DNA of 64,000 bases. It comes from Spirochaetae bacterium HGW-Spirochaetae-3. GTDB lineage: Bacteria; Spirochaetota; Spirochaetia; Treponematales; UBA12059. Location of the stretch: positions 222,016 through 286,015 of the forward strand of contig PGXV01000005.1 of the NCBI GenBank assembly GCA_002839315.1, written 5' to 3'. Shown one piece after another: positions 47,173 to 64,000 of the stretch. Position numbers and translations under genes: made by a program. The first letter of the stretch is position 1; each line of letters starts with the position of its first letter. The notes below the pieces were generated by a model, which saw nothing but the letters and a program-made list of their open reading frames with translations, ran no database searches and was not told the origin of the DNA.

Positions 47173-47322
47173 CGCGCGGCTGATCCGTCGGTAGTTGTAT
47201 AAATATGCGAGTAAAGTGCATGAATATGCGATATTGACTTGACTCAAAAAAGGGGGCGATGATATTGTGCGGCGATTCTACGTGTAGAACGCTCTATCCA
47301 AATGTTACTGGGGGACTCGAGA

Positions 47323-48711
47323 ATGAGTACAAAGCCCATCAAGGTGCCGCACACTTTCGTGCTGCTGTTCGCCCTGATCATCGTAGCGATCATCGGATCG
47401 TACGTCATCCCTGCCGGTGAATTCGATCGCGCCAAGGATCCGAATTCCGGAAAGACCGTGGTCGTTCCCGGTACGTACCACGCCGTAGAGCAGGTTCCCC
47501 AGCATCCTTTCAAGACGTTCATCGCCGTCCAGAAGGGCTCGATAGACGCGGCCGACGTCGTATTCTTCGTGTTCTTCGTCTACGCGTCGTTCTATATCGT
47601 GCTACAGACAGGCGCCCTCCACTCGTTCATAGGCGGATTGCTCAGGGCGTTGAAGGGTAAGGAGATTATCCTCATCCCCGTGTTCATGTACGTCTTCGCT
47701 CTCGGGGGCTCGGTCTTCGGTATGTTCGAGGAGACGTTCGGTTTCATTCCTCTGTTCGTCGGGCTCGCCATAGCGATGGGCTTCGATGCCATAGTCGGAA
47801 TGAGCATGGTGTTCCTCGCCGTCGGCATGGGATTCGCGGCGGCGTTCATGAACCCGTTCACCGTGGGCGTAGCGCAGAAGGTAGCGGAGCTACCGCTGTT
47901 CTCCGGCATGGGCTTCCGTATCGTCAGCTGGTTCGTATTCGTGACGATGGCGGTCATCTGGACCATGAGGTACGCCATCAAGATCAAGAAGGATCCGAGC
48001 AAGAGCCTCCTCGCCGGCGTCGACATGGGCAAGCTCGCGCTCAACCATGACGAGCTGATCGAGAAGAAGGCCACCGGCCGCGACAAGCTCATCCTGTGGT
48101 GGGTCGTAGCCACGGTCGGCCTCCTCGTCTGGGGCGTCATCGTCAAGGGCTGGTACTTCGACGAGCTCGCGGGCCTGTTCATCATCATGGGCATCGTCGC
48201 GGGCTTCCTCGCCGGATGGGGACCCAGCAAGATCGCTTCTACCTTCCTCGAGGGATGCAAGGATATCGTATTCGGCGCGCTGGTCGTCGGCCTGTCGCGC
48301 GGCATTCTCGTCGTGATGCGGGACGCCAAGATCATAGACACCGTGGTGTACGGTATGTCCCTCCCCCTGTCCTCGCTCCCGCGCTGGATAGCGGCCGAGG
48401 GCATGCTGGTCGTGCAGACCCTCATCAACTTCTTCATCCCGTCCGGTTCCGGCCAGGCGGCGACGACCATGCCTATCATGGCCCCGCTGTCCGACCTCCT
48501 CGGCATCTCGAGGCAGACCGCCGTACTGGCGTTCCAGTACGGAGACGGCTTCTCCAACCTCCTGTGGCCGACCACGCTGCTACCGGTCGTCTGCTCCATC
48601 GCCAAGATCCCGATCCAGAAGTGGTGGCGCTATTTCATACCGTTCTTCGGCTTCCTGATCGTAGCCCAGATGATCTTCATCGCCGCGTCGGTCTTCATAG
48701 GCCTGGTCTGA
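47323..48711 (+). CDS. YfcC/DcuC-like anaerobic C4-dicarboxylate-carrier-family membrane transporter
   Basis: ORF 47302..48711 trimmed to the ATG at 47323. Polytopic, with a YfcC-like N-terminus (KVPHTFVLLFALIIV) and length. Confidence 0.7.
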   Translation: MSTKPIKVPHTFVLLFALIIVAIIGSYVIPAGEFDRAKDPNSGKTVVVPGTYHAVEQVPQHPFKTFIAVQKGSIDAADVVFFVFFVYASFYIVLQTGALHSFIGGLLRALKGKEIILIPVFMYVFALGGSVFGMFEETFGFIPLFVGLAIAMGFDAIVGMSMVFLAVGMGFAAAFMNPFTVGVAQKVAELPLFSGMGFRIVSWFVFVTMAVIWTMRYAIKIKKDPSKSLLAGVDMGKLALNHDELIEKKATGRDKLILWWVVATVGLLVWGVIVKGWYFDELAGLFIIMGIVAGFLAGWGPSKIASTFLEGCKDIVFGALVVGLSRGILVVMRDAKIIDTVVYGMSLPLSSLPRWIAAEGMLVVQTLINFFIPSGSGQAATTMPIMAPLSDLLGISRQTAVLAFQYGDGFSNLLWPTTLLPVVCSIAKIPIQKWWRYFIPFFGFLIVAQMIFIAASVFIGLV

Positions 48712-48810
48712 TATTACGGCCACTTCTCGGCGATAACGTTGTATACTTGCGACGGCCCGGGGCGACCCGGGCCGTCGTTTCATTAGCAAGCGATACTGAA
48801 AGGAACCATC

Positions 48811-49989
48811 GTGAGTGAATATGATAGGATCATAAGAACAGTCGACGAGGCGATAGCCGCGAGGGCCGCGGAGGCCGTGGCCCTGAGCGACGCGATGGCG
48901 GCCGATCCTGAGATCTCAGAGCAGGAATTCAGGAGCAGCAAGGCGCACGTCGAATTCCTTGAAAAAAGCGGATTCGCCGTGGAGTATCCGTTCTTCGGGA
49001 TACCGACGGCCTACAACGGCAAGCTATCGTACGGTACGAACGGCCGCGTCTCATTATTGACCGAATACGACGCCCTGCCGGGAATAGGCCACGCGTGCGG
49101 CCATAACGTCCATGGCGCCATGAGCCTGCTCGCGGGCGCCGGCCTCGCCCCCGTGATGAAAGAGCTCGGCGGCGAGCTCTGGGTTACCGGTACGCCGGCC
49201 GAGGAGAGCAACGGCGCGAAGATCACGATGGCCGCGGGGGGAGTCTTCGACGGGCTCGACCTGGCGCTGATGATACACTCCGGGAACAGCGAATGCCGCG
49301 TCCGCTACCGCTGCCTGGCTATGGACGGGATCGAATTCAAGTTCACCGGAAGGGCCTCGCATGCGGCGGCCTCGCCGTGGGAGGGCAGGAACGCGCTCAA
49401 CGGCGCCCAGCTCTTCTTCCATGCGATAGACATGCTGAGGCAGCACGTCAGGCCCGATGTACGTATGCATGGTATCTACGTCGACGGAGGCAAGGCATGC
49501 AATATCGTCCCGGAATCCGCGACCGTGCGCTTCTACTTCCGCTCGCCGCGCCGCGCGCACCTGAACGACCTGCTCCAGAAGGCCTATAACGCCGCCAAGG
49601 GCGCCGCGCTGGCGACCGAGACCGAGGTGGAGTGGCATCAGTTCGAGCTGCCCTTCGACGAGCTCGTGCCGAACGAAGCGGCGGAATCGATGATGGAATC
49701 CGTCTATGACGAGCTCGGCGTAGGGTACGGCCCCGTTTCCGGTCCGGACGGCTCGTCCGACGTAGGTAACGTCAGCATGCATTGCCCGACGCTCCAGCCT
49801 CTGTTGCCGATCGTCGACAAGCCTTACGCACTGCATACGCGCGAATTCGAGGCGGCTACCAGGCAACCGCAGGCTCACGCCGCTATAGCGACCGGAGCCA
49901 GGATACTCGCGCGCGCGGCGCTCAGGACCTTCCTCGAGCCGGAGCTACGATCGAGGATGAACGCCTGCCTTGAGAAGAACAAGGGCTAG
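48811..49989 (+). CDS. M20-family amidohydrolase/peptidase (AbgB/aminobenzoyl-glutamate-utilisation-like)
   Basis: 392 aa with GTG start. HACGHN metal motif, GTPAEE, and a dimerisation-domain-like middle section. Confidence 0.75.
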   Translation: MSEYDRIIRTVDEAIAARAAEAVALSDAMAADPEISEQEFRSSKAHVEFLEKSGFAVEYPFFGIPTAYNGKLSYGTNGRVSLLTEYDALPGIGHACGHNVHGAMSLLAGAGLAPVMKELGGELWVTGTPAEESNGAKITMAAGGVFDGLDLALMIHSGNSECRVRYRCLAMDGIEFKFTGRASHAAASPWEGRNALNGAQLFFHAIDMLRQHVRPDVRMHGIYVDGGKACNIVPESATVRFYFRSPRRAHLNDLLQKAYNAAKGAALATETEVEWHQFELPFDELVPNEAAESMMESVYDELGVGYGPVSGPDGSSDVGNVSMHCPTLQPLLPIVDKPYALHTREFEAATRQPQAHAAIATGARILARAALRTFLEPELRSRMNACLEKNKG

Positions 49990-50002
49990 GATAGCGGACG
50001 GC

Positions 50003-51154
50003 ATGGAATACCGGACGGGATTCTCGCTCCACCGCGGCGCGGACGGGGCGTTCGCGCCGTGGTCGATGTCGGGGGCGTCGCTTCATGACGGACGCGTCGC
50101 GCTGATCGATTCCGCGTCGCGCGGCGTCGGCGAGGCGGGCATCGAATGCGCCGCCGGAGAGGTGACGAGCCCCGAGGTCCAGACGGATTTTCCGTTCGCC
50201 TCTTGCGTTACCTCCTGGAACGCCGACCTGCCCGAAGGTTCGTGGCTGGAGACGTCGTTGCGCGTTCGCTCGGGCGGGACCTGGACGTCGTGGCGCTCGC
50301 TCGGCGTATGGGCGCCCGACGATTCGACTATCCGCAGGCACTCGGTCGCCTGCCAGGACGACGTCGCGGCGCGCGTGGCCACCGATACCCTGGAGCCGAC
50401 GCGCCCGGCGGACGCGTTCCAGGCCCGCCTCCGCCTATTCGCGGCGGTCGGCGCCGGCGGCCGGGTACGCTGCGTCGCGATGCCCGAGCTTCGCTCGTTC
50501 TCTGTCGCGTACTCGGACGCCAAGCCGGTCGTCGCGCCCGTCGTCTCGTCCCCGTCGCCGCGCGCCCGCGGCCTGGTCGTCGGGGCGGTGCCGCGATGCT
50601 CGCAGATGGTGTATCCGGGGGGCGGCGACGTCTGGTGCAGCCCGACCTCGGTGGCTATGGTCCTCGGGTATTGGCGCGGCGAAGACGGACCCTGCGAGGA
50701 TCGCGTGCGCGCCGCGGTCGCCGGCGTCTACGACCATGGCTACGCCGGCCACGGGAATTGGTCCTTCAACGCCGCGTACGCCGGGTCCCGCGTCGGTATG
50801 GAGGCCTATGTCGCCCGCTTCCGCGGCCTCGATCGGCTCGAGCCGTGGATAGCGGCCGGCGTACCCATAGTCCTGTCGGTCTCCTGGGATAACGACGAGG
50901 GGCGGACTCTGACGGCGGCTCCCGTGCCCAGGTCGGCCGGGCACCTGACGACTCTCGTAGGATTCGACGACGACGGTAACGCCGTCATGAACGAGCCCGC
51001 CTCGCCGTCGGACGATACAGTCCGCCGCGTCTACGACAGGCGCGAGCTGGAAACGCGCTGGCTGTCCGCGTCTGGCGGTACGGCCTACGTAGTATTCCCG
51101 TCGGGAACGGGCGAAACGGATCGATCCGGGCTCTTCGCGGCGACCGCGGGCTAG
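50003..51154 (+). CDS. C39-like (papain-fold) peptidase domain protein with an uncharacterised N-terminal domain
   Basis: ORF 49970..51154; the ATG at 50003 is preferred. C-terminal half has WCSPTSVAMVLGYW (candidate Cys nucleophile) and GHLTTLVGFDDDGN (candidate His). Confidence 0.5.
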   Translation: MEYRTGFSLHRGADGAFAPWSMSGASLHDGRVALIDSASRGVGEAGIECAAGEVTSPEVQTDFPFASCVTSWNADLPEGSWLETSLRVRSGGTWTSWRSLGVWAPDDSTIRRHSVACQDDVAARVATDTLEPTRPADAFQARLRLFAAVGAGGRVRCVAMPELRSFSVAYSDAKPVVAPVVSSPSPRARGLVVGAVPRCSQMVYPGGGDVWCSPTSVAMVLGYWRGEDGPCEDRVRAAVAGVYDHGYAGHGNWSFNAAYAGSRVGMEAYVARFRGLDRLEPWIAAGVPIVLSVSWDNDEGRTLTAAPVPRSAGHLTTLVGFDDDGNAVMNEPASPSDDTVRRVYDRRELETRWLSASGGTAYVVFPSGTGETDRSGLFAATAG

Positions 51155-52467
51155 CGAGAGCCGTATAGGTAGTCGACCGCCGCGGCCTGAATGCCTTCCT
51201 GCCATGAGTAATACGAAGAGAACACGCCGCCCCGGGTCTCGGGATCGACCGAGGTACCGCCTATCAGGTAGACGAAGCCTTTTCGCGCGTCGACGTCGAA
51301 GAGCATGCCGCCGAGCAGCCCGTACGCGTCGGCATGATGGCCCTCCATCGCGACGCCGCCGGCCTCACGCAGGTAATTCCCGCCGAACTCGTCCCTGGAG
51401 TCGGTCGTCATGAATAGCGCTAGCCCCGAGCGACGACTCTTGCCGCGGCCGAGATCGCCGTTCATCGTAGCCCGGTCGAAGGTCCAGCGCGCCTCGCGCA
51501 TGGTCTCCACGCTCTTCGCCGACAGTATCCGCGCGCCGTCCACTTCACCACGGCCCATGAACATGAGCGCTAGCCGCGCTACCTCGCGCGCCGACGCGCG
51601 CAGGCCCCCCTGCGGGGAGAACCAGGTCGCGTTGACGCCCGGCTCGTACGCGGCGATAGCGGCGTCGCTCGGGTTCGAAGAGGGGCGGACGCCCCGCAGG
51701 TCGTCGACCTGCGCTAACCACGGGCCCGCGTAGTTCCAGTCGTCCTCGCCTCTACCCTTGCGGTACAGCGCCGCCAGGTCGGCGAGGCCGTCGTCCGATA
51801 GTAGCCTGACGTTGAACGATCCCCCGACGCCGAGCGGGGCGAGCACGCGCTCCCGCATGAAGAGATCGAAGCGTCGTCCCGTAACCCGCTCCAGTATCGT
51901 GCCTATGACGCCGAAGCCGAGGTTGCAGTACGCGTAGTAGCCCCCCGGCGCGAGCCTCGGGTCCGAGGGCGTCCCGGCGAAATGGGCGCCTCCCTCCCAC
52001 GCGTCCGAGCCCGGTTCGAAGAACTCGCGGAGCGAACGGCCTGGCGGTAGCGAGTAATTCCCTCCGTCGCGTAGCGACGAGACGTGCGATAGCAGCATCG
52101 CCGGGGTTATCGGGGCATCGGGGAAGGCCGGGTTGCGAAGGCGCCATCCGAGGTAATCGGAAACGTCGGCGTCCAGGTCGAGGAGCCCTTCCTCGACGAG
52201 CATCATACAGGCGACGCCGACGAAGGGCTTCGATATCGAAGCGACGCGGAACCTGGTGCCGGCGGTCACCGGCAGGTCGAGGGACGGATCGGTAGGGTGG
52301 ATGAACCGGCGGCCGAGGTAACGCTCGTACGATACGGAGCCGTCCTCGATAGCGACGAAGGCGAGTCCGGACAGCTCGGCGCCCGGACTCGCAGCGACGA
52401 GGTCGAGCCGCCTGGATAATTCGATCGAACGGGAGGAGTCGTCATTCGTTTCCATGGCTACGATCAT
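51151..52467 (-). CDS. beta-lactamase-fold serine hydrolase (class C / D-aminopeptidase-like)
   Basis: 438 aa, GGAGG RBS. SxxK motif ASISKPF. 3' end overlaps the convergent C39-like gene by 4 nt. Confidence 0.75.
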   Translation of the reverse strand: MIVAMETNDDSSRSIELSRRLDLVAASPGAELSGLAFVAIEDGSVSYERYLGRRFIHPTDPSLDLPVTAGTRFRVASISKPFVGVACMMLVEEGLLDLDADVSDYLGWRLRNPAFPDAPITPAMLLSHVSSLRDGGNYSLPPGRSLREFFEPGSDAWEGGAHFAGTPSDPRLAPGGYYAYCNLGFGVIGTILERVTGRRFDLFMRERVLAPLGVGGSFNVRLLSDDGLADLAALYRKGRGEDDWNYAGPWLAQVDDLRGVRPSSNPSDAAIAAYEPGVNATWFSPQGGLRASAREVARLALMFMGRGEVDGARILSAKSVETMREARWTFDRATMNGDLGRGKSRRSGLALFMTTDSRDEFGGNYLREAGGVAMEGHHADAYGLLGGMLFDVDARKGFVYLIGGTSVDPETRGGVFSSYYSWQEGIQAAAVDYLYGSR

Positions 52468-52523: not shown

Positions 52524-53060
52524 ATGAAATCGTCCATGAGGCGACTGTTCGATATCAGGGCCGCGGCTCTCGGTACGACCGTCGCCGCGGCGGCATGCGC
52601 CGCCTCGTTCGCGATAGCCGCGCTCGGTCTCGGCAACCTCTATTACGCCTCGGTATTCATGCCCGTAGCGATGCTCGGGTGCCTCTCTATAGCCTGGTTC
52701 TCGTTCCTGCGCGACGACGGCTTCGCGCGTCGGAAAGCCGGCTCCGATGTCGGCGACCCGGACGGCGCGCTGCCGGAACCCGCGCCGGCGGAGCCCGTCG
52801 CCGTTCAGGGCCTCGGCCGGTCCTGCGCCGCCTCCGATATAGGCGACGTCGCCCGGCGCGACGTCCCGCCCGGGCATCCCGACGCGTCTATGTACGTTCC
52901 CCGGAACAGCGGCCTCGTCCCCAGGCGCCCCCTCGCAGGCTCCGCTACCGGGCGTTCCGGCGTCTCGGCCCGCGCCGCCCTCGTCTGGGCCGCCGTAGAG
53001 ATAGGCGCCGTGGCCGCTCTCCTCTACTCGGTAGCCGGCGTCGGCTCCCGCTTCTATTAG
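52524..53060 (+). CDS. hypothetical membrane protein
   Basis: 178 aa with about three predicted TM stretches. No SD sequence and no recognisable family. It could be a spurious ORF. Confidence 0.3.
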   Translation: MKSSMRRLFDIRAAALGTTVAAAACAASFAIAALGLGNLYYASVFMPVAMLGCLSIAWFSFLRDDGFARRKAGSDVGDPDGALPEPAPAEPVAVQGLGRSCAASDIGDVARRDVPPGHPDASMYVPRNSGLVPRRPLAGSATGRSGVSARAALVWAAVEIGAVAALLYSVAGVGSRFY

Positions 53061-53337: not shown

Positions 53338-55161
53338 TTATTTTGCTCTCTTCAGGGCCGCGTCTCGCGCGGTTTCCCACGACTTCTCGAGCGACAGGTA
53401 CTCATCGGTCCCCATGCCCTTGGGCATGACGATCTGTCCCTTGAACTTAAGCGTCGACAGGCCGAACGGCGCGTAGGGCGGGGTGAACGGCTCGAGCTTG
53501 GACGCCTCGAATCCGCCGCCGCCTCGCGCGAACGGTATGACGATAGCCTCGTCGATCAGGTAGGCCTCGGCCTTCGCGAATAGTTCGTAGCGCTTCTTCA
53601 TGTCCTTCGTCTCGGCCATGGCGGGGTCGACCAGCTTGTCGTAGCTGGTCTTACCGTCGGCCTGCTTGTAGGCGGGCGAGCTGTCGAGGAAGACGTAGTT
53701 GGCGCCTGAGACGAACGGATCTGTGTAGGTCTGGGGGTCGGCGTAGTCCGGGCCCCAGTTGAGTTCCATCAGGCCGTAGTTGCCGGCGCGCCTGGTGGCG
53801 CTGAGGAATCCGGTTGACGGGAACGAAACGGGTATTATGTCGATGAAGTCCTTGCCGAGCAGGGTCTCGAGCTGCTGCTCGACTACCTGGACGCGGTTGG
53901 CCCACTCGTAGATGTTGTCGGAGCGGTACGGCATCATGATCTTGACCGGGAAGGTGGCCTTGCCGGCCAGTTCCTTCATCGCCGCGGCCTTGAAGCCAAG
54001 CGCCGCGGCCTTATCGAAGGGCGTGGAGCCGGCGAGGGCCGCGAGGTCGCCCGTAGAGACGTAGTCCCTGCCGCCGGCGCTCGCGAAGAAGGAGGGCGTG
54101 ATCGTCTTTATGATGCGGCGATCCGGCGAGTAGGGCTCCCAGGTGAGCATCGCCGCCTTGCGGTCCAGGGCGCTGTATATGGCCTTGCGGAAGTTCTTGT
54201 TGTTGACCGCGACGGCCCAGTTCGCGGGCTCGTACTCGGCCGCGAAGGTCGGCTTGAAGTTGAAGCCGTAGAAGTACGTGTAATAGCTGACCCTGGACGG
54301 GCGGACCTGTACCTTCTTGGCCGGATCCTTCATCCAGGTGTCGAGGATGCTGGACGGAATGGGCGCGTACGAGCTCTGTCCCCTGAGGAATAGCTCGGGG
54401 GCGAGGGTCCTGGCCTCCTTGTTGTAGCGGTAGATCAGCCGCGGGATGTTGACGTTCTTCTGGTCCCAGTACTTCTTGTTCTTGGTAAGGACCCTGGACA
54501 CCTGGGGCTCGAACTCGGTCATGATATAGGCGCCGTTGGACAGCACGCTCTTGTGGTCGCGTCCGAAGGTCGATCCCATGGCCTCGAGGAACTTTCCGTT
54601 GACCGGCAGGTACGTCACGTAGCTGAGCATCGACAGGAAGTACGGTACCGGCGCCTTGAGCGTGTACTCGAGCGTGTACTTGTCCACCGCCTTGACTCCG
54701 ACCTGCGAGAAGTCGGTTATCTTGGCTTCGTAGAACTCGTCGGCGTTCTTGATGACCGTGGACAGGGGATCGACGATCGTCGACGCGTTGGCCTTGGTCA
54801 GGATGTACCTGGCGGCGTCCACCCAGTCCTGGGCGGTAACCTCGGCGTAGGGCTTGGCCTGCCAAGTATACCACTGGACTCCCTTGCGGAGCTTGAAGGT
54901 CCAGACGAGCCCGTCGGGCGAGGAGGTCCACGACTCGGCGAGGCTCGGCTTGAGCACGCCGTACTTATCGTACTCTATGAGGTTGTCGATCGTGTTGGCG
55001 AACATGAAGTGTTCGTTCTCGGTACCGGTGATGAGGTGGTTAAGCGTCGTCACCTCGCCCGAGTACATCTCGTAGTAGTCCCCGGATTTCCGCTGGGACC
55101 ATGCCTGGCCGACCGCGACGATCGCGACGATCGCCAGCGCGAGTGCCTGCTTGTTCTTCAT
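53338..55161 (-). CDS. ABC transporter peptide-binding protein (family 5, Opp/Dpp type)
   Basis: 607 aa, AGGAAG RBS, signal peptide. Full-length OppA/DppA-SBP-like sequence. Confidence 0.85.
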   Translation of the reverse strand: MKNKQALALAIVAIVAVGQAWSQRKSGDYYEMYSGEVTTLNHLITGTENEHFMFANTIDNLIEYDKYGVLKPSLAESWTSSPDGLVWTFKLRKGVQWYTWQAKPYAEVTAQDWVDAARYILTKANASTIVDPLSTVIKNADEFYEAKITDFSQVGVKAVDKYTLEYTLKAPVPYFLSMLSYVTYLPVNGKFLEAMGSTFGRDHKSVLSNGAYIMTEFEPQVSRVLTKNKKYWDQKNVNIPRLIYRYNKEARTLAPELFLRGQSSYAPIPSSILDTWMKDPAKKVQVRPSRVSYYTYFYGFNFKPTFAAEYEPANWAVAVNNKNFRKAIYSALDRKAAMLTWEPYSPDRRIIKTITPSFFASAGGRDYVSTGDLAALAGSTPFDKAAALGFKAAAMKELAGKATFPVKIMMPYRSDNIYEWANRVQVVEQQLETLLGKDFIDIIPVSFPSTGFLSATRRAGNYGLMELNWGPDYADPQTYTDPFVSGANYVFLDSSPAYKQADGKTSYDKLVDPAMAETKDMKKRYELFAKAEAYLIDEAIVIPFARGGGGFEASKLEPFTPPYAPFGLSTLKFKGQIVMPKGMGTDEYLSLEKSWETARDAALKRAK

Positions 55162-55343
55162 GTGCTACTTCCTTAACAGAAGACTATAGTAAAAAGACGG
55201 TAACACCGCCGCTTTCCAAGTATTTCACTCGACTTGCCCGAAGTCAAATTGTATATGCTATTATTGTCCCGGCGGAGGCCCCGGACGACTGGCCTCTCCG
55301 GCGTTAGGCATGTTACTATACAACGATACATACGGCAAGGAGG

Positions 55344-56315
55344 ATGGCCGCCCTCAGCGGCCGGCGCGCGATGCTGAAATACTCTATAAAGCGGCTCCTG
55401 CAGTCGCTCGTTACGCTGCTCATCGTCGTTACGGCGGTATTCCTGCTGATGAGGCTACTCCCTATAGAGGGCTACTTCGGCGACGGCTTCGACAAGCTTA
55501 GCGAAAGCCAGCGCGAGGCGGTGCTCCAGAAGATGGGGCTCCTCGATCCGTGGTACGTCCAGCTAGGCACGTTCTATAAAGGCCTCGCCAGGGGCGACCT
55601 CGGCGTCTCGAGCATCTACCGCAAGGACGTGCCGGTGCTCGAGGTGATAGCCCCGCGCGTACCGTACTCCGTGCGCTTCGGCCTCGCCGCCATCACGCTC
55701 GCGCTCGTCGCCGGCCTCGCGATGGGCGTCTCGATGGCGAAGCACAAGGGCAAGGGCCTGGACAAGCTGTGGACCGGCTACGTCGTTTTCGTCAACGCGG
55801 TACCGTTGGCGGTCTACCTGCTGTTCATACAGCTGTACGGTACGAGCCTCTTCAACCTGCCGTTGCTGTTCGACAAGTACATGCCTTCAAGCTGGATCCT
55901 TCCGGCCCTGTCCATGTCCCTCGGCAGCATCGCCGGATACGCGATGTGGATGCGGCGATACATGGTCGACGAGCTCAATAAGGACTATATCAAGCTGGCG
56001 CGGGCCAAGGGGCTCTCCCAGTCGACGATCATGGTCAGGCACGTGATGCGAAACGCCTACGTTCCCATGGCCCAGTACCTGCCCGCGTCGATACTGATGA
56101 CGATATCCGGCTCGATATACATCGAGTCGCTGTACTCGATACCCGGAATGGGGGGGCTGCTCGTGGACGTCATCCAACGCCAGGACAATCCGATGGTCCA
56201 GGCGCTCGTTCTCATCTTCTCGTCGGTCGGCATCGTCGGCCTCTTCCTCGGGGACCTCCTGATGGCCTTGTTCGACCCGCGTATCAAGCTGTCGAAGAGC
56301 GGGGTGTCCCGATGA
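55344..56315 (+). CDS. peptide ABC transporter permease (OppB/DppB type)
   Basis: 323 aa. Canonical N-terminus MLKYSIKRLLQS begins at the alternative ATG 55371. EAA-like loop KLARAKGLSQ. Confidence 0.85.
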   Translation: MAALSGRRAMLKYSIKRLLQSLVTLLIVVTAVFLLMRLLPIEGYFGDGFDKLSESQREAVLQKMGLLDPWYVQLGTFYKGLARGDLGVSSIYRKDVPVLEVIAPRVPYSVRFGLAAITLALVAGLAMGVSMAKHKGKGLDKLWTGYVVFVNAVPLAVYLLFIQLYGTSLFNLPLLFDKYMPSSWILPALSMSLGSIAGYAMWMRRYMVDELNKDYIKLARAKGLSQSTIMVRHVMRNAYVPMAQYLPASILMTISGSIYIESLYSIPGMGGLLVDVIQRQDNPMVQALVLIFSSVGIVGLFLGDLLMALFDPRIKLSKSGVSR

Positions 56316-57295
56316 TCCGCGACAGGATACTTACCAACGCCGAATCCGCCGTCGCCGCGGAGGTCGACGCGTCGCTGTTCGTCCAGGCGGAATTCGACGC
56401 GAGCGCGGGGGAGCGCGGCGGCTATTCCGATTATTCCTATTGGCGCTCGACGATGCGCGGATTCCTCAGGAACAGGGTCGCGCTCGGCTTCCTCGTGCTG
56501 CTCGGGACGCTGCTGCTCTTCACGTTCATCCAGCCGATGCTGCCGGGCCAGAAGAGCCCGACGCTTATCCATAACGATCCGGCGACCGGCATGCAGTTCC
56601 GCAACGTGCCGCCGGGCCGGGAGTTCTGGTTCGGCACGAACACGATAGGCCAGGACCTCTGGTCGCGCATCTGGGGCGGCACCCGTACCTCGCTGCTCAT
56701 CGGCCTCATCGTCGGCGCGGTCGAGATGATCATCGGCATAAGCTTCGGCGCTATATGGGGATACGTGCGCAGGCTCGACGGCGTGATCACCGAGATATAC
56801 AACGTCCTCAACAACATCCCGACGACGATAGTCCTTATGCTACTCGCCTATATCCTCCGCCCCAGCTTCAAGACCATGGTGATAGCGATGTGCGCCACCG
56901 GGTGGCTGGGCCTGGCCCGCTTCGTACGCAACCAGATCGTCATCATCCGCGACCGGGAATATAACCTCGCGTCGCGCTGCCTCGGAACGCCGAGCCGCCG
57001 CATCATCGTCAAGAACCTGCTACCGTACCTCGTGTCGGTGATCATGCTGCAGACCGCGCTGTCCATACCAGGGACGATAGGCTGGGAGGTGTTCCTGACG
57101 TACATCGGCCTGGGCCTGCCGGTCAGCATCCCGTCGCTCGGCAACCTCGTCAACGAGGGGCGGCAGATCATGATGTCGCCGGAGCTGCGCTACCAGCTGC
57201 TGTTCCCGACGGTGATCCTGTCGATGATAACCATCTCGTTCTACGTGCTCGGCAACGCGTTCTCCGACGCGTCCGACCCGCGCAACCACGTGTAA
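56312..57295 (+). CDS. peptide ABC transporter permease (OppC/DppC type)
   Basis: 327 aa, ATGA overlap with the upstream permease. NLASRCLGTPSRRII loop; multi-TM. Confidence 0.85.
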   Translation: MIRDRILTNAESAVAAEVDASLFVQAEFDASAGERGGYSDYSYWRSTMRGFLRNRVALGFLVLLGTLLLFTFIQPMLPGQKSPTLIHNDPATGMQFRNVPPGREFWFGTNTIGQDLWSRIWGGTRTSLLIGLIVGAVEMIIGISFGAIWGYVRRLDGVITEIYNVLNNIPTTIVLMLLAYILRPSFKTMVIAMCATGWLGLARFVRNQIVIIRDREYNLASRCLGTPSRRIIVKNLLPYLVSVIMLQTALSIPGTIGWEVFLTYIGLGLPVSIPSLGNLVNEGRQIMMSPELRYQLLFPTVILSMITISFYVLGNAFSDASDPRNHV

Positions 57296-57306
57296 GGATA
57301 GAAGCT

Positions 57307-58365
57307 ATGGCAAAAGGCGACGCGATACTCGAGGCCAAGGACGTAGTTATCAAGTTCAACCTGCGAGGCAGGACGCTGACGGCGATACGCGGCGCCAGCC
57401 TCGAACTGAACGAAGGCGAGACGCTAGCGATAGTCGGCGAGTCGGGGTCCGGGAAATCCGTGCTGACGAAGTCGTTCATCGGCATGCTCGACCAGAACGG
57501 CTGGGTGGATTCGGGCTCCGTTATGTTCGAGGGACGTAACCTCGCCGCGCTACGGGACGAGAAGGAGTGGCTGGCGATTCGCGGCAAGAAGATCGCCATG
57601 GTCTTCCAGGACCCGATGACGGCGCTCAACCCGCTCCTGAGCGTCGGAGCCCAGATCCGGGAGGTCTTCGAGCTCCATCACGGCCTGTCCGGCAAGGCGG
57701 CGGACCACGCGGTTATCGACATGCTCGAGCGGGTCGGCATAGACGCTCCGGAGTCCAGGCGGAAGCAATACCCCCACGAATTCTCCGGCGGCATGAGGCA
57801 GCGCGTCGTCATAGCGATAGCGGTAGCGTGCAAGCCGCGCATCCTGATATGCGACGAGCCGACGACGGCCCTGGACGTGACGATCCAGGCGCAGATACTC
57901 GATCTGATAAAGGCGCTGCAGCGCGACCTGGCCTTTACGACGGTATACATCACCCACGACCTCGGCGTCGTCGCCAACGTCGCCGACCGCGTCGCGGTGA
58001 TGTATTCCGGCCAGATCGTAGAGACGGGCATGGCCGAGGAGGTCTTCTACGACTCGCGTCATCCGTATACCTGGGCCCTGCTTTCGTCGCTGCCGCAGCT
58101 CGGCGTCAAAGGCCAGCCCCTATACTCGATATCGGGCACGCCGCCTAACCTGTTCAACAGGATCTCGGGCGACGCGTTCGCGCCTCGCAACCCCAAGGCG
58201 CTCAAGGTCGATTTCGTCGCGCAGCCGCCGATGTTCCAGATAAGCCCGACCCATAGGGCGGCTACCTGGCTGCTCGATCCGCGGGCGCCGGCTATGGATC
58301 CGCCGCCGGCGATTTTGGCTATGCGCGCCAAGCTCGGCGGCGCCAAGATCGGAGGCGCGCGATGA
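57307..58365 (+). CDS. peptide ABC transporter ATPase (OppD/DppD type)
   Basis: 352 aa. Walker A GESGSGKS, signature FSGGMRQR, Walker [12 protein letters not shown], and the oligopeptide C-terminal extension. Confidence 0.9.
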
Positions 58366-59315
58366 ACGGCGGCGAACGCGAGGCCGTGCTCGAGCTAAAG
58401 GACCTCGAGGTCTCCTTCAAGGTCAAGGGCGGCGACGTATTCAAGGCGGTCAAGGGCGTCAACTTCACCATCTATAAGGGAGAGACCTTCGGCCTGGTCG
58501 GCGAGTCGGGCTCGGGCAAGACGAGCATCGGGCGGGCCGTCGTCAGGATAAACGACGCCAGCGCCGGATCCATACTGTACAAGGGCCGCAAGATCAACGG
58601 AAAGATATCCAGGGAGCTGGACCTCGAGGTGGTCCGCAAGATACAGATGATATTCCAGGACCCCATGGCGTCCTTGAACGAGCGCGCCAAGGTCGACTAC
58701 ATCATCTCGGAGGGGCTCTATAACATCGGCGTCAAGCGAACCGAGGCCGAGAGGAAGGACCTGGTCTCGAAGGCGCTGCTCGAGGTGGGGCTCCTGCCCG
58801 AATTCGCTTCGCGCTTCCCCCACGAGTTCTCGGGCGGCCAGCGGCAGCGCATCGGCATCGCGCGGGCGCTGATCATGGAACCCGAGCTCATCGTCGCCGA
58901 CGAGCCTATATCGGCGCTCGACGTGTCGATTCGGGCCCAGGTGCTCAACCTCCTGTCGGCGATACAGAAGGCCAAGGGCCTTACGTACCTGTTCATAGCG
59001 CACGATCTCTCGGTGGTGCGGTTTATCACCGACCGCATAGCCGTCATCAACAAGGGCGAGATCGTCGAGCTCGCGGAGACGGAGGAGTTGTTCAGGCGCC
59101 CGCTGCATCCGTATACGCGGGCGCTGATATCCGCTATCCCGCAGCCGGATCCTATAGCCGAGCGCGGCAAGGTCGTTACCGTCTACGACCCGAGGTGCCA
59201 CGATTACTCGACGCAGGGGCCCTCTTGGGTAGACGTGGGCGGAGGGCATTTCGTGCTGGCCAACGCGAAGGAGGTTGAGGCGTACCGGGCGGAGATGGCC
59301 GCGGCGCAGCCTTAA
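58362..59315 (+). CDS. peptide ABC transporter ATPase (OppF/DppF type)
   Basis: 317 aa. [28 protein letters not shown]. Overlaps the upstream stop. Confidence 0.9.
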
Positions 59316-60046
59316 CTCGACGCGCTCGTAACGAGCGCCTCGAAGGGCGCGAGGAATTCCGGGAAGCGCCTGGTCATGCCTTCCGGGTGGAACTGGACCG
59401 CGACGAGGAAGCGATCGGGATCGGGCGACTCGACGGCCTCGACGATGCCGTCGAGGGCGCGAGCGGAAACGACAAGGCCGGGCGCGACGTCCTTGATCGC
59501 CTGGTGGTGGAAGCTGTTGACGAGGATACGCGCGTCCGCGAACAGATGGCCGAGCCGCGTGCCCGGTACGATATCGATATAGTGGGCGGGCTCGTCCATA
59601 GGGACGTCGAAGGAGTGGCCGCCGGCCGTCGGGACCTGTGCGGGGATGTCCTGGTATAGGGTGCCTCCGAGCGCTACGTTGACGACCTGGCAGCCGCGGC
59701 ATATGCCGAGTAGGGGTAGCCCGCGGGCCTGAGCGGCGGCGAACAGGGCGAGTTCCCAGCGATCGCGGCCGGAATCCATCCGCGCGACGCCGCCGGACGC
59801 GGCCTCGCCGTAGAGGTAGGGGCAGACGTCCCCGCCGCCCGACAGTACGAGACCGTCGAGGCGTCGGACGAAGGCCGCCGCGGCTTCGGCTAACTCGGCG
59901 CCCGAGGCGAGGCCGCTCGGGCCGGGTAGTACGAGAGGCAGGCCCCCGGCCGCCGAGACGGAATAGGGGTACGTGGCGTTTATCGAGACGTAGGCCGATC
60001 GGTTCTTGTGTTCGTCGAACGATGTTATTCCGATGACGGGCGGCAC
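59312..60046 (-). CDS. class I glutamine amidotransferase-like C26 peptidase (PuuD / gamma-glutamyl hydrolase family)
   Basis: ORF 59312..60343 trimmed to the in-frame GTG at 60046, preceded by GAGGAG-N6 (244 aa). Nucleophile motif GICRGCQ and NSFHHQA. Stop codons overlap convergently with the upstream ATPase gene. Confidence 0.75.
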
Positions 60047-60233
60047 GGGTGGCTCCTCGCGGACCGCTCGGGGCCGCGGATGGCATTCTATACGCGGAGG
60101 CGCGCTTCGTGAAGCCGTCTCCCGGAGCGGGGGTACGTATTGAGGTCTCAAGATCGACGTGATACGCTGATTCCGCGCCGGGAGACGCGCGATGGACGCT
60201 TCTATTCCCGAGTCGAACGGAGGGCTCGTCTTG

Positions 60234-61361
60234 ATGATCGATAGGCAGGCTTGGGCCGAGATAGATCTCTCGGCGATACGGAAGAACGTACGCAACCTGG
60301 TTGCCCTCGCCGGGAACGGAGCGGGTATATGCGCCGTCGTCAAGGCGGACGGCTACGGGCACGGCGCCGGCCCGGTCGCGCGCGCGTGCCTCGACTCGGG
60401 CGCGTCGTCGCTCGCCGTCGCCCTCGTCGACGAAGGCGTCGCCCTTAGGCGCTCGGGCATCGTAGAGCCCATACTCGTGCTCGGCTATACGGGGGAAGAA
60501 GGCGCCGGCAGGGCCGCCGCGTGGGGTCTGTCGGTCGTCGCCGTATCCGAGGACAACGCCCGTTACATCGCCTCCGAGGCGAAGCTGAGGGGGAAGCCGG
60601 CCCGTATACACCTGAAGATAGATACCGGCATGTCAAGGCTCGGCCTCTCGCCGGAAGAGGCGGCCGCCGCGGCGGCCGAGATATACGCCATGCCCGGGGC
60701 GATCCTCGAGGGCGTCTGCTCCCATTTCGCCGATTCCGACGCGGCGGACGGTGCCTTCGCGACGCTACAGCTGTCGCGCTTCAACGAGGCGGTAGCCGCG
60801 ATCGAGCGCGCCGGCGTCCGGGGCTTCGCCCGCCATATGGCTAATAGCGCCGCGTTCATACACATGCCCGAGGCCCGCTTGGACATGGCGCGCCCGGGCA
60901 TAGCGATATACGGCCTGCGAGCGTCTACGCAACGGGCCTGTCCCTTCGAGCCGGTTCCCGCGATGGCGCTGAAGGCCCGGGTCGTCCAGGTCCGCACGGT
61001 ACCGGCGGGGGAAACCGTAGGCTACGGCCGGACGTTCCGCGCGGCCCGAGACTCGAGGATAGCCACGCTACCGCTCGGTTACGCCGACGGCGTATCGCGC
61101 GCCCTTTCGAACCGCGGGTCCGTCGGCTTCGGCTCCGGGCGCGCGCCGATGGTCGGGACGATATGCATGGATCAGCTGATGGTCGACCTGACCGACCTTC
61201 CCGAGGAGGGGCCCGGTTCCGTCGCGACCATATTCGGGCCGGGAGGGCCGCCGGTATCCGAGCTCGCCGACCTCCTGGGCACGATAGACTACGAGGTCGT
61301 CTGCGACGTTTCCGGGCGAATACCACGGATCTATAGCGATAGCCGCATGGAGGAAGATTAA
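60234..61361 (+). CDS. alr: alanine racemase
   Basis: ORF 60192..61361; the ATG at 60234 is preferred (GGAGGG RBS; 375 aa). PLP-lysine motif VVKADGYGHG, GIAIYGL tyrosine region, and CMDQ. Confidence 0.85.
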   Translation: MIDRQAWAEIDLSAIRKNVRNLVALAGNGAGICAVVKADGYGHGAGPVARACLDSGASSLAVALVDEGVALRRSGIVEPILVLGYTGEEGAGRAAAWGLSVVAVSEDNARYIASEAKLRGKPARIHLKIDTGMSRLGLSPEEAAAAAAEIYAMPGAILEGVCSHFADSDAADGAFATLQLSRFNEAVAAIERAGVRGFARHMANSAAFIHMPEARLDMARPGIAIYGLRASTQRACPFEPVPAMALKARVVQVRTVPAGETVGYGRTFRAARDSRIATLPLGYADGVSRALSNRGSVGFGSGRAPMVGTICMDQLMVDLTDLPEEGPGSVATIFGPGGPPVSELADLLGTIDYEVVCDVSGRIPRIYSDSRMEED

Positions 61362-61364
61362 AAA

Positions 61365-62579
61365 ATGCTACGACATACCCGTTACGACGTCGATCTCGAC
61401 GCCGTGGCCCACAACTTCAGGCGAGTGAGGGAGATCGTTGGCTCGGAAGCCGATAGCGCCGCTCCGAAGGCCGCCGTCGTGCTCAAGGCGGACGCGTACG
61501 GGCTGGGAGCGGTACCGGTGGCGCGCGTACTCCTTCGCGAGGGCGCCGACATGCTCGCCGTCGCCTGCCTGCCCGAGGCCGTGCAACTGCGGCGCGCCTT
61601 CCCCGACGCGCCCATCCTCGTGATGGGCCACACGCCCGACGAGTACTTCCCGGAAGCGGTCCGCGAGCGCGTGACCTGCACGATCTTCGATTACGCCCAG
61701 GCTGAGGCCTTGTCTACCGAGGCGGCGCGGGCGGGCGTTACGGCGGTCGCGCACGTCAAGGTGGACACGGGCATGAACCGGCTCGGCCTCAAGCCCGAGC
61801 TGTTCGAGCCGGGTACGGGCGCTGGCTCGGCGGCCGGGCTGCTGGCCCGGATGGCCTGCCTGCCCTCGCTTGCTCTGGAAGGCGTCTTCACCCACCTGGC
61901 GCTCAACGACGAGGCGTCGGACGCGGCCCAATTCGCGACGTTCATGAGGCTCTTGGACGGCGCGGCCGCGCTCGGCGTACGCTTCGCGATACGGCACGTC
62001 TGCGATTCGATAGGGTTGATGAAATACCCCGAATACCGCTTGGACATGGTGCGTCCCGGCGCGGTGATGTACGGCGTCACGCCCCTCGACACCCCGTTGA
62101 CCGCGTCCGCCGATATCCGAACGCCGTTCCGCCTCTCCACGCGCATATCGAGGATCAGGCCGATGGCGGCGGGCGAGGGCGTAGGCTACGACTATACGTT
62201 CCGCGCTCCGCCGGGCGGCACGCTACTGGCGACCCTTCCCGTGGGCTACGCTGACGGCTATAAACGCTGCCTGTCCAACGTCGCGAGCGTGCTGGTCCGC
62301 GGGCGCCGCGCCCCGGTCGTCGGGCTCGTCTGCATGGACCAGTGCACCGTCGACGTAGGCGGCGTGCCCGGGGTCCGGGAAGGCGACGAGGTCGTGCTGC
62401 TGGGCGGCGACCGGTCAGACAGGCCAGGCGAGGGCATCCCCGTCCTGGAGATGGCCGGGTGGGCCAAGACCAACCGCAACGACGTCATCTGCTCCATAGG
62501 CCGTCGCGTTCCCCGCGTCTACCTCGAGGGCGGCCGGCCCGCCGTCGAATCGGATTTTGTACTGGGAGGTACCGTATGA
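61365..62579 (+). CDS. second alanine-racemase-family paralog (divergent; AYGLG PLP motif)
   Basis: 404 aa, starting 3 nt after the alr stop. VLKADAYGLG, GAVMYGV, VCMDQ. Specificity unknown. Confidence 0.75.
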   Translation: MLRHTRYDVDLDAVAHNFRRVREIVGSEADSAAPKAAVVLKADAYGLGAVPVARVLLREGADMLAVACLPEAVQLRRAFPDAPILVMGHTPDEYFPEAVRERVTCTIFDYAQAEALSTEAARAGVTAVAHVKVDTGMNRLGLKPELFEPGTGAGSAAGLLARMACLPSLALEGVFTHLALNDEASDAAQFATFMRLLDGAAALGVRFAIRHVCDSIGLMKYPEYRLDMVRPGAVMYGVTPLDTPLTASADIRTPFRLSTRISRIRPMAAGEGVGYDYTFRAPPGGTLLATLPVGYADGYKRCLSNVASVLVRGRRAPVVGLVCMDQCTVDVGGVPGVREGDEVVLLGGDRSDRPGEGIPVLEMAGWAKTNRNDVICSIGRRVPRVYLEGGRPAVESDFVLGGTV

Positions 62580-63760
62580 TAGCGCCAGAAAAGCTTCGTA
62601 TCGACGCGTGGGACATCCGCCCCTGGCTCGTAGAGATACGCAGGACCCTGCATCGCCATCCCGAACTCGGGTACGCGGAGACGCGGACCGCCGATTACAT
62701 AGGATCGAAGCTCGATGAGATGGGTATCGAGTACGCGCGTACGGGTACCGCGATCGTCGGCCTCGTGCGGGGCGCCAAGCCCGGCAAGACCGTGGCGCTC
62801 CGCGCCGACATCGACGCATTGCCTATAAAGGAAGAGACGGGAGTCGAGTACGCCTCCGAGAACGACGGCGTCATGCACGCCTGCGGTCACGACGCGCATG
62901 CGACGATCCTTCTCGGCGCGGCGAGATGGTTCGCCGAGCGTCGATCCGATCTGGCCGGCAACGTGAAGCTACTGTTCCAGCCGGCAGAGGAAACCGACGG
63001 CGGCGCCGAGATAATGATCAGGGGCGGTTGCATGGAGAATCCGCGCGTAGACTACGTGCTCGGCCTCCACGTGATGCCGTACTTGCCGGTAGGCCGGATC
63101 GAGACGAAGAAGGGCGCCCTCAACGGCTCCTCTACCGAGCTCGACTTCACGATCGGCGGCACGAGCTGCCACGCCGCCTATCCCGAGCGCGGCGTCGACG
63201 CGATCATGATAGCGGCGCACGTCGTAACGGCCCTCCATTGCCTCGTGTCGCGATACGTGTCGCCGCTCGAGGCCGCGGTACTGACCATAGGCACGATCCG
63301 CGGCGGTACCGTATCAAACGTAGTCGCGGGCGAGGTCACGATGAAGTCGACGCTACGAACGACGAGCGATCAGACGCGCGACATGCTGGTAGACAAGGCC
63401 AGGTCGATAGTCGAAAGCGTATCCGCGTCGTTCGGCGGATCGGGCTCCCTAAAAGTCAGCTACGGATATACCGCGCTCATAAACGACTCGGCCGTCGTCG
63501 ACGAGATCGCCGCCGTCGCCGACGAGATCCTGTGCCCCGGCTCGCTCGAGTGGAAAGAGAAGCCGAGCATGGGCGTCGAGGATTTCTCGTTCTTCTGCAG
63601 GGAGCGGCCCGGCGCCTTCTACCACCTCGGCTGCGGCAACGAGAAGCGCGGGATATCCTCGCCCATTCATTCGCCGACGTTCGACATCGACGAGGACTGC
63701 CTGCCCCTCGGCGTGGCGATGCAGGTCGCCTGCGCCCTGCGCCTCCTGGAGAAGGCCTGA
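62576..63760 (+). CDS. M20D-family N-acyl-L-amino acid amidohydrolase / carboxypeptidase
   Basis: ORF 62342..63760 trimmed to the ATG at 62576 (ATGA overlap). RRTLHRHPELGYAE, MHACGHDAH, and LFQPAEE motifs. Confidence 0.8.
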   Translation: MIAPEKLRIDAWDIRPWLVEIRRTLHRHPELGYAETRTADYIGSKLDEMGIEYARTGTAIVGLVRGAKPGKTVALRADIDALPIKEETGVEYASENDGVMHACGHDAHATILLGAARWFAERRSDLAGNVKLLFQPAEETDGGAEIMIRGGCMENPRVDYVLGLHVMPYLPVGRIETKKGALNGSSTELDFTIGGTSCHAAYPERGVDAIMIAAHVVTALHCLVSRYVSPLEAAVLTIGTIRGGTVSNVVAGEVTMKSTLRTTSDQTRDMLVDKARSIVESVSASFGGSGSLKVSYGYTALINDSAVVDEIAAVADEILCPGSLEWKEKPSMGVEDFSFFCRERPGAFYHLGCGNEKRGISSPIHSPTFDIDEDCLPLGVAMQVACALRLLEKA

Positions 63761-63769
63761 CGGCGAATA

Positions 63770-63836
63770 CGAGCGGTTCAGTGGATGAGTTGTCGTAACC
63801 GAACCCCTGAACCACTTATTGTCACGGTATTTTTTT
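63770..63836. repeat. dispersed-family hairpin followed by a T8 run (probable terminator)
   Basis: GGTTCAGTGGATGAGTTGTCGTAACCGAACCCCTGAACC (stem GGTTCAG/CTGAACC), then ...CACGGTATTTTTTTT. Confidence 0.6.
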
Positions 63837-63860
63837 TGATTGCTATTCTGGAGGTGCGTT

Positions 63861-64000
63861 TTGGATAAGCTGTATATAAGCGCGGATATCGAGGGCGTTT
63901 GCGGGATCGCGGACTGGAAAGAGACCGAGATAGGCGAGGCCCAGGGCGCGTACTTCCGCGCCGAGATGACCCACGAAGTGGCCTCCGCCTGCGAGGCCGC
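63861..64000 (+). CDS. dppA: D-aminopeptidase DppA (peptidase M55), 5' fragment running off the window
   Basis: Hand translation from TTG (GGAGGT-N5 RBS): LDKLYISADIEGVCGIADWKET...MTHEVASACEA. It matches the KLYxSxDxEGxxG N-terminus of M55 peptidases. Not in the ORF track because it is truncated. Confidence 0.7.
   Translation, partial: MDKLYISADIEGVCGIADWKETEIGEAQGAYFRAEMTHEVASACEA

Follow-up and report, generated by a model that had tools for sequence, protein, structure and literature searches.

Why should a peptide-uptake locus carry two alanine racemase genes head to tail, and what might the second, divergent one be for? The question arises from a stretch of 64,000 nt of the genome of Spirochaetae bacterium HGW-Spirochaetae-3 (G000:C17:222016-286015, hereafter the window; the assembly is 3.9 Mb long and 98% complete), in which the genes of an Opp-type oligopeptide importer are followed by the racemase genes Alr1 and Alr2, an M20D amidohydrolase gene and the beginning of an M55 D-aminopeptidase gene. 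We consider that the locus probably encodes a cytoplasmic salvage or catabolic system for peptidoglycan stem peptides and similar peptides containing D-amino acids, and that Alr2 is best read as a racemase dedicated to this system; both views are drawn from gene content, conservation and residue patterns. The names of close homologues point to a place among uncultured Spirochaetota related to Rectinema. Genomes are given G-numbers (G000 being this one) and loci fetched for comparison L-numbers, of which L017 is the same contig read on past the end of the window. Gene identities were assigned from Pfam and NCBIfam profile scores and from the nearest solved relatives by sequence.

The two racemases are 41% identical and both score above the TIGR00492 cut-off of 168. 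Alr1, whose best solved match is 5yyc (270 bits), has the canonical residues His45, Asn203, Ile222, Gly266, Ile352 and Tyr354, with Thr at position 309, and is the only canonical alanine racemase gene in the genome (positions follow the numbering of the Geobacillus alanine racemase and were mapped by motif). Alr2 keeps Lys39, Tyr43, Lys129, Arg136, His166, Arg219, Tyr265', Tyr284', Arg290', Met312' and Asp313'. The alanine-restricting gate (Tyr354, Ile352, Ile222, Asn203, Gly266 and Arg309), which Alr1 possesses except at 309, is lost from Alr2. Its place is taken by a signature that is fixed across 34 members of the Alr2 clade, namely Tyr354→Asn, Ile352→Asn, Arg or Lys at 353, Gly266→Asp (Tyr-Gly becoming Tyr-Asp in 34/34), Asn203→Asp, Arg309→Leu and Ile222→Ala. 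The motifs have changed clade-wide as well (YGHG→YGLG, HFAT→HLAL, ANSAA→CDSIG, RPGI→RxGA, GRxCMDQ→GLxCMDQ and TIxYE→TN(R/K)N(E/D)), and altogether nine pocket or entryway positions are altered throughout the clade. Because these gate and pocket residues are replaced, we regard Alr2 as a member of the alanine racemase fold and family, and not as a strict alanine racemase.

In a tree of 62 sequences, Alr2 falls in a clade of its own (support 100, stem length 0.94), and Alr1 falls among canonical racemases that include the in-operon copies of L035 and L036; a third group, a separate canonical clade that tracks Treponema-type taxonomy, is absent from G000. On a tree, the signature requires 3 changes, against a mean of 27.7 in shuffles, and none of 500 shuffles was as low (0/500). 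The phylogeny and active-site comparison that the earlier note on this DNA had proposed thus places Alr2 in a separate clade with a remodelled pocket. The same note had allowed that the second paralogue might prove to be a simple duplicate of alr, which is not borne out for a member of such a distinct, old clade. An exhaustive search of 1.8 billion cluster representatives, of which the best 150 matches were examined, found the signature in 28 of these 150, at identities down to approximately 38%; the protein atlas gave only 'alanine racemase' as a label. Some members of the clade are fused to other enzymes, as DapF::Alr2 and S66::Alr2.

Could Alr2 be a degenerate or regulatory paralogue without racemase activity? 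It lacks Tyr354, the canonical ligand of the phosphate of pyridoxal 5'-phosphate (PLP), as well as His45 of the PLP motif, and activity is low in the Thermoanaerobacter enzyme that has Gln in place of Tyr354 (PMC4517790). We nevertheless hold such a loss of function to be very improbable. Lys39, Tyr265, Arg136, Arg219, His166, Asp313 and Lys129 are shared by Alr1 and Alr2 and vary little or not at all among the 34 members of the clade, so that the suspicion of a catalytically dead enzyme, raised in the earlier note, finds no support in the predicted catalytic Lys, Tyr, His, Asp and two Arg residues. Moreover, the new residues are themselves conserved across phyla, which is the pattern of a working, re-specialised enzyme.

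What, then, would the rebuilt pocket accept? Here we rely on motif mapping and on the literature for the pocket geometry. The Tyr354 position faces the side chain of the substrate. In the Geobacillus enzyme, the exchange Tyr354Asn gave a 62-fold gain in serine racemisation, and the alanine activity was not lost; Asn696Tyr in VanT had the reverse effect, and BsrV has a proline (Pro391) at this site (PMC4542195). The Thermoanaerobacter enzyme with Gln at the same site has a broader specificity, with 28% relative activity on L-Ser, and a lower overall activity (PMC4517790). In the entryway, the inner layer is formed by Tyr265', Tyr284', Ala and Tyr354, and the middle layer by Arg290', Arg309', Ile352 and Asp171 (PMC4517790). 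As far as the mapped residues indicate, both layers are rebuilt in Alr2, which should therefore accept side chains larger than methyl.

Alr2 resembles known racemases of broader specificity only in part. With VanT it shares the fold, the catalytic dyad and the Asn at the Tyr354-equivalent position (VanT Asn696). However, VanT has an N-terminal membrane domain that Alr2 lacks, the vanT-G model gives 260 bits against a cut-off of 460 bits, and the Asn of VanT lies in a Tyr-Ser-Thr context, whereas that of Alr2 lies among Ile, Pro/Ala and Arg. The fold, the catalytic dyad and a gate other than Tyr are also shared with the Thermoanaerobacter enzymes AlrTt (Gln360) and DadXTt (His359) and with Vibrio BsrV (Pro391). 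In contrast to the Bsr enzymes, which carry a signal peptide and are periplasmic, the translation of Alr2 shows none, and the solved Bsr/Lyr chains score 105-129 bits against Alr2, compared with up to 239 bits for alanine racemases. Alr2 also differs from the other racemases without a Tyr gate in its own co-varying changes at positions 45, 167, 169, 203, 205, 222, 266, 309, 352 and 353.

Two kinds of substrate deserve consideration. We lean slightly towards D-Ala together with other small or polar D-amino acids freed by D-aminopeptidases. This choice is favoured because no partner of Alr2 is universal except the importer and because a D-aminopeptidase (M55 or S12) stands beside Alr2 in all loci but L063 and L079, the two whose contigs stop right beside it. 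The less probable choice in our estimate, though one to be taken seriously, is a main substrate of another kind, for example an isomer of diaminopimelic acid (DAP), a gamma-D-Glu compound or a D-amino acid with a basic or acidic side chain; anything else is improbable.

A related proposal is that Alr2 is a racemase or epimerase for one specific non-alanine substrate from the stem peptide (DAP isomers, a basic D-amino acid, D-Glu, or gamma-D-Glu-DAP, in which the alpha-amino group of D-Glu is free), working alongside a canonical Alr that handles D-Ala. Several observations are in its favour. First, four lineages (L035, L036, L061 and this genus) have a single operon that contains both a canonical Alr and Alr2, which argues against simple redundancy. 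Second, a canonical Alr is also kept in all 15 of the 15 genomes with Alr2, so that Alr2 is never the sole racemase. Third, the exchanges at 354, 352, 222 and 309 are predicted to enlarge the site, and with two acidic residues gained (203 and 266) as well as a basic one (353) it would be suited to a distal group that is charged or zwitterionic. Fourth, DapF adjoins Alr2 or is fused to it. The partnership with the importer and the D-aminopeptidases speaks against this proposal, as does the lack of LysA and DapF in cis from the Holophaga and Bacillota clusters; furthermore, Arg or Lys353 may merely replace Tyr354 as the ligand of the PLP phosphate, and D-Glu is handled elsewhere in this genome, which has MurI and an L-Ala-D/L-Glu epimerase-like gene next to pepD. 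Because these two genes are present, D-Glu is the less likely substrate of Alr2 here, and the idea that Alr2 fills a missing D-Glu step is weakened. Balancing these points, we regard a dedicated non-alanine activity as possible but doubtful, and prefer D-Ala and other small or polar D-amino acids as substrates. With similar reserve, and as a tentative suggestion only, the Alr2 type might be a functionally new class among fold-type III PLP racemases and epimerases, acting on a non-alanine stem-peptide centre (DAP isomer, D-Glu, gamma-D-Glu-DAP or a basic D-amino acid), and the hallmark enzyme of a widespread, undescribed module for scavenging murein peptides in spirochaetes, Acidobacteriota and Clostridia.

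The epimerase-like gene lies in L142 (G000:C5:104500-121500), where the enolase-type protein (255 bits, under the cut-off) is convergent with pepD (410 bits). The same locus holds a dapB-like gene, dapD, a gene resembling those for DapC or LL-DAP aminotransferase, a class-IV (D-amino-acid transaminase-like) aminotransferase gene and three unassigned genes.

How constant is the company that Alr2 keeps? Reference proteins from G000 were mapped by tblastn on 13 loci around Alr2 orthologues, in relatives from two spirochaete families, and the cluster proteins were found at 57-94% identity. Alr2 is the most constant enzyme of the cluster (13/13 loci). M20D, M55, LysA and M19 flank it in 12 of the 13 (not in L030), the M19 gene in the short contig L023 lying beyond the fetched DNA. 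The Opp genes occur in 11 loci, the contigs of L021 and L027 ending before reaching them; OppBCDF are 71-94% identical to those of G000, and the binding protein is 60-83% identical in all 10 of the 13 loci whose fetched DNA reaches that far. S66 is present in nine of the 13. Adjacency of M20D to Alr2 extends further, to 18 of 20 loci, comprising the same 12 relatives together with L035, L036, L060, L061, L063 and L080.

The combination also recurs in other arrangements. L036, an unassigned metagenome contig, has the order sigma-54 activator, Alr, DapF, Alr2, M20D, M55, S66, LysA, M19 and EamA, with the Opp genes divergent, and L035, likewise an unassigned metagenome contig, is arranged similarly. 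Two further unassigned metagenome contigs contain the fusions: L061 has Alr, DapF::Alr2, M20D, M55 and S66, and L060 has OppBCDF, the solute-binding protein (SBP), LysA, S66::Alr2, M20D, S12 and M19. In L080, a metagenome-assembled genome (MAG) labelled Bacillota, we found S58, a transglutaminase-like peptidase, OppABCDF, Alr2, M20D, M55, S66 and S12, and Holophaga has a reduced set of SBP, Alr2, OppBCDF and M55 only. Thus, the co-conservation in relatives on which the earlier reading depended is found across families and phyla, in two spirochaete families, metagenome contigs, the Bacillota-labelled MAG and Holophaga.

Counts of orthologues across 41 relatives give a similar account. Alr2 occurs in 15 of the 41, each of which also has an orthologue of LysA; M55 is found in 14 of them, the single genome without it being a fragmented assembly. 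With 50% identity as the minimum, a LysA orthologue was detected in 23 of the 41 relatives and, among these 41, in none of the Treponema-like families; 21 of the 23 genomes also have an Alr2 or M55 orthologue, the remaining two being G002 (87% complete) and G039. As a control for neighbourhoods, we used 80 alr loci from named genomes, among the matches listed. Of these, 77 were canonical and 3 had the signature; two of the latter show cluster genes and the third lies at a contig end, and none of the 77 canonical loci listed has M55, S66, LysA or M19 within the fetched flanks.

Alr1 and the C26 gene are less constant members. Alr1 stands in tandem with Alr2 only in G006, G007 and G009 among the 13 relatives, as in G000, and lies nearby in G016. 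It appears to be an ordinary alanine racemase and a recurrent but dispensable member of the cluster. Of the two racemases that had been counted as parts of the system, both are therefore present, but the core enzyme is the divergent Alr2. We rejected the view that Alr1 is a housekeeping gene placed there by chance, given its clade mates in the operons of L035 and L036 and an Alr-M55-LysA trio in G023. Racemase-M55-LysA trios were seen at G018:C60:6150-9342 and G023:C98:7031-10199, and no Alr2 orthologue was found in either genome; the racemase of the G023 trio belongs to the canonical Alr1 clade, and that of G018, in the same gene order, was not placed on the tree. C26 is the least conserved member: its identity within the genus is 39-56%, whereas its neighbours reach 70-92%, and the loci outside the genus contained no match to it.

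From these members we can outline how the system might work, each step being conditional on the family to which the enzyme belongs. Peptides would be brought in by the Opp-type importer with its own binding protein. The S66 LD-carboxypeptidase would then take the terminal D-Ala off tetrapeptides, and M55 and S12 would remove D-residues, for which D-Ala-D-Ala, split into its parts, serves as the model substrate. M20D, whose family relatives include N-acyl-amino-acid hydrolases, is the best candidate to free DAP from its gamma-D-glutamyl (N-acyl-L) linkage. M19 would cleave L-Xaa-D-Xaa dipeptides such as L-Ala-D-Glu and DAP-D-Ala, LysA would convert meso-DAP to lysine, and the racemases would return D-amino acids to the L pool. 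The earlier proposal of import and dismantling of D-amino-acid and stem peptides is strengthened by S66, LysA and M19 downstream of the window, by S12 upstream of the importer and by the in-operon DapF of other lineages. Its gamma-glutamyl hydrolase component fares less well: C26 is present but is not conserved outside the genus, so that it cannot carry the gamma-D-Glu step in general, and C26 as the gamma-D-Glu-DAP amidase of the system is a weakened candidate. Besides scavenging foreign wall material, the cluster could serve to recover products of the cell's own turnover.

Some points weigh against a system for stem peptides. The cluster has no gamma-D-Glu-DAP amidase of a known type (MpaA or YkfC); the loci L021, L022 and L028, which are otherwise complete, have no S66; M20D, M55, S12 and M19 are broad families whose scores lie under the specific NCBIfam equivalog cut-offs; and the binding protein, whose nearest solved relatives are the pneumococcal AliC, AliB, AliD and AmiA, resembles general oligopeptide binders (AliB and AmiA) and not MppA. 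The position of LysA, moreover, could partly reflect lysine biosynthesis. LysA is the sole enzyme of its kind in the genome, the only other fold-III decarboxylase scoring 163 bits, and since dapA and dapD occur in the genome along with dapB-like and DapF-like genes, it must serve that pathway too; the notion of LysA as a purely salvage enzyme in a DAP auxotroph is accordingly not supported.

Might the locus then be no more than a general oligopeptide uptake and peptidase locus beside housekeeping alr and lysA genes, with no special link to murein peptides? The character of the binding protein, the DAP-pathway genes elsewhere in the genome and the single copies of LysA and Alr1, which must be biosynthetic too, would agree with this explanation. 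On the other hand, at least five members (M55, S12, S66, M19, the racemases, and LysA, acting at the D-centre of DAP) come from families in which the characterised enzymes act on D-residues or L-D bonds. The set reappears in other phyla with its genes in other orders and in part fused, and the 77 canonical alr loci among the matches listed lack such neighbours. We therefore consider a general oligopeptide locus unlikely, and retain the salvage or catabolism of stem peptides and similar D-amino-acid peptides as the probable function.

Systems for the uptake and catabolism of murein peptides are already known from Bacillus subtilis and Escherichia coli. The dppABCDE-ykfABCD locus of B. subtilis encodes the D-aminopeptidase DppA, the Dpp importer, the LD-carboxypeptidase YkfA, the L-Ala-D/L-Glu epimerase YkfB and the gamma-D-Glu-DAP endopeptidase YkfC. 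The spirochaete cluster shares with it the presence of M55, a family-5 ATP-binding cassette (ABC) peptide importer and S66 in one locus, as well as cytoplasmic enzymes and, by our reading, a murein-peptide substrate. In contrast, the enolase-type epimerase and the NlpC/P60 enzyme of B. subtilis are not in the spirochaete cluster, and neither an enolase-superfamily L-Ala-D/L-Glu epimerase nor NlpC/P60 was found in any of the approximately 20 loci examined; the spirochaete cluster instead has M20D, M19, LysA, one or two PLP racemases, S12 and a C39_2-like peptidase, and DppA (M55) does not head its operon. In E. coli, murein tripeptide is catabolized by MppA-Opp, LdcA, MpaA, YcjG and PepD, and then LysA. 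The logic is the same, comprising import, an LD-carboxypeptidase, DAP release, a dipeptide step and the conversion of DAP to lysine, and a YcjG-like epimerase gene next to pepD is also found in the spirochaete genome, outside the cluster. However, the E. coli genes are scattered, whereas those of the spirochaete form one predicted operon that includes LysA and the racemases, and a homologue of MpaA (M14) is absent from the spirochaete cluster.

Our literature searches found no description of this gene combination or of such a PLP-type racemase. New here are the occurrence of such a cluster in a spirochaete, the extension of the locus by S12 and the papain-like peptidase, and a racemase clade that is defined by the Alr2 signature and includes fusions to DapF and to the LD-carboxypeptidase. 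In sediments, digesters and guts, large amounts of organic nitrogen and D-amino acids are tied up in peptidoglycan, and beyond E. coli and B. subtilis little is known of how anaerobes use its peptide part. Free-living spirochaetes have been proposed as recyclers of necromass, in a paper that makes no mention of peptidoglycan peptides (PMC6052044). The locus offers a compact, testable set of enzymes for the use of peptidoglycan peptides by free-living spirochaetes. The Alr2 subfamily is conserved, uncharacterised and defined by a signature, and is directly assayable; this signature could be a genomic marker for murein-peptide scavenging and possibly point to a source of racemases with new specificity.

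The features of the locus are collected in Table 1. All genes named in the earlier note were recovered at their places in the open reading frame (ORF) listing and in family scans. Its Opp/Dpp-type importer with a divergent binding protein was upheld by Pfam, the binding-protein gene being divergent from OppBCDF; OppB/OppC and OppD/OppF overlap by 4 nt, and OppC is separated from OppD by 11 nt. The convergent C26 gene after the importer is likewise present, its true start probably being the GTG near 60044, which is preceded by a GAGGAG site; the PuuD model gives 105 bits, under its cut-off of 266 bits, and the Cys, His and Glu motifs are present. The tandem arrangement of the racemases could be read directly in the sequence, from the TAA stop of Alr1 across 3 nt to the ATG of Alr2, as could both their motifs and the ATGA overlap that couples M20D to Alr2. 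For M20D, the CpsA model gives 366 bits, under its cut-off of 500 bits, and among solved proteins ILL2, 4ewt and YxeP come closest.

Table 1. Features of the locus in and beyond the window (positions are those of the window).
Feature	Position	Strand	Basis or remark
Peptidase_C39_2-like papain-fold cysteine peptidase	49970..51154	+	PF13529 50 bits; Cys and His motifs in translation
Cytoplasmic S12 (beta-lactamase-fold) serine hydrolase	51151..52467	-	PF00144 142 bits; SISK (S-x-x-K) motif; no signal peptide
Small predicted membrane protein	52524..53060	+	Hydrophobic N- and C-terminal stretches; no Pfam family
SBP_bac_5 oligopeptide-binding protein, 607 aa, signal peptide	53338-55161	-	PF00496 178 bits
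OppB permease	55344-56315	+	Pfam scan of OppBCDF (BPD_transp_1, OppC_N, ABC_tran, oligo_HPY)
OppC permease	56312-57295	+	Same Pfam scan
OppD ATPase	57307-58365	+	Same Pfam scan
OppF ATPase	58362-59315	+	Same Pfam scan
C26 (class I glutamine-amidotransferase-like) gamma-glutamyl hydrolase	59312-60044 (listed ORF 59312-60343)	-	PF07722 206 bits
Alr1	60192-61361	+	PF01168 and PF00842; TIGR00492 348 bits; motif VVKADGYGHG
Alr2	61365-62579	+	PF01168 and PF00842; TIGR00492 277 bits; motif VLKADAYGLG
M20D amidohydrolase/carboxypeptidase	62576-63760	+	TIGR01891 347 bits
Hairpin and T8 run	63770..63836	+	In the 100-nt M20D-M55 gap
M55 D-aminopeptidase, 5' part (first 46 codons)	63861-64000	+	PF04951 275 bits on full gene in L017
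S66 LD-carboxypeptidase	Downstream of window	same strand	Serine motif GYSDIT, then Glu- and His-containing segments
LysA	Downstream of window, ~95 nt after S66	same strand	TIGR01048 449 bits vs cut-off 297.9
M19 dipeptidase	Downstream of window, 1 nt after LysA	same strand	PF01244 324 bits

The earlier note had ended the locus with M55. The 5' end of this gene is indeed in the window, starting at a TTG (63861) behind GGAGG and running off the window end to give 266 aa in the genome, but the locus continues past 64000 with S66, which is coupled to M55 by an ATGA junction, LysA and M19, whose nearest solved chain is Sco3058 (3id7, 197 bits). Convergent SDR (short-chain dehydrogenase/reductase) and RlmJ genes follow M19.

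On the other side of the importer, S12 and the papain-like peptidase are associated members of the locus. Together with the small membrane protein, both also accompany the cluster in other genera: S12 in L019, L024, L026, L028, L029 and L030 and also in the clusters of L060 and L080; C39_2-like homologues (43-60% identity) in L025, L035, L026, L030, L029 and L019; and homologues of the membrane protein (32-46% identity) in six loci. In L030, OppABCDF, S12 and the C39-like gene follow one another on one strand. The S12 protein, a candidate D-stereospecific peptidase, has Pab87, the R61 DD-carboxypeptidase and alkaline D-peptidase as weak nearest solved relatives; Pab87 has D-Ala aminopeptidase activity, cleaving D-Ala-p-nitroanilide, and trims muropeptide pentapeptides (PMC2651629). 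The C39_2-like peptidase has no signal peptide and an N-terminal half (approximately 190 aa) with no assigned family, and no solved relative was found for it by sequence. Just upstream of its gene, at 47302-49989, the window contains a YfcC-type carrier gene and a second M20D amidohydrolase gene (TIGR01891 170 bits), which, unlike the S12 and C39-like genes, are not beside the cluster in the relatives' loci examined.

Other genes of the racemase fold were also observed. The genome has four PF01168 genes, namely Alr1, Alr2, a YggS-like gene and an Orr-like gene. At L004:1453-2628, on contig C18 of G000, lies a third Alr-fold gene with the ornithine racemase Orr as best match (301 bits vs a 480-bit cut-off). 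Among the library representatives, P0153 (763 aa) consists of two complete Alr units in tandem, and P0206 (1018 aa) joins YjeF_N and Carb_kinase, the domains of NAD(P)HX repair, to a canonical Alr.

A scan for promoters and terminators gave nothing above chance. The M20D-M55 gap, which holds the hairpin, measures 95-173 nt in part of the genus, whereas in L020, L024, L025, L026, L027, L028, L029 and L036 the two genes are 5-35 nt apart or overlap. Because the gap is absent or this short in eight loci, the hairpin has the look of an intergenic repeat that was inserted, and not of an ancestral operon boundary; it could act as an attenuator. Upstream of Alr1 in the genus of the window, only one weak, non-conserved match to a sigma-54 promoter was found. 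Well-formed sigma-54 promoters of the form TGGCAT-N5-(T/C)TGCA are present at L036:7900-8000 (TGGCATGCTTCTTGCA) and L061:600-680, lying 79 nt and 52 nt, respectively, upstream of the first racemase gene, and in L036 a gene for a sigma-54 enhancer-binding protein adjoins the operon. Sigma-54 control in these two loci therefore fits a catabolic operon, for which such control is usual.

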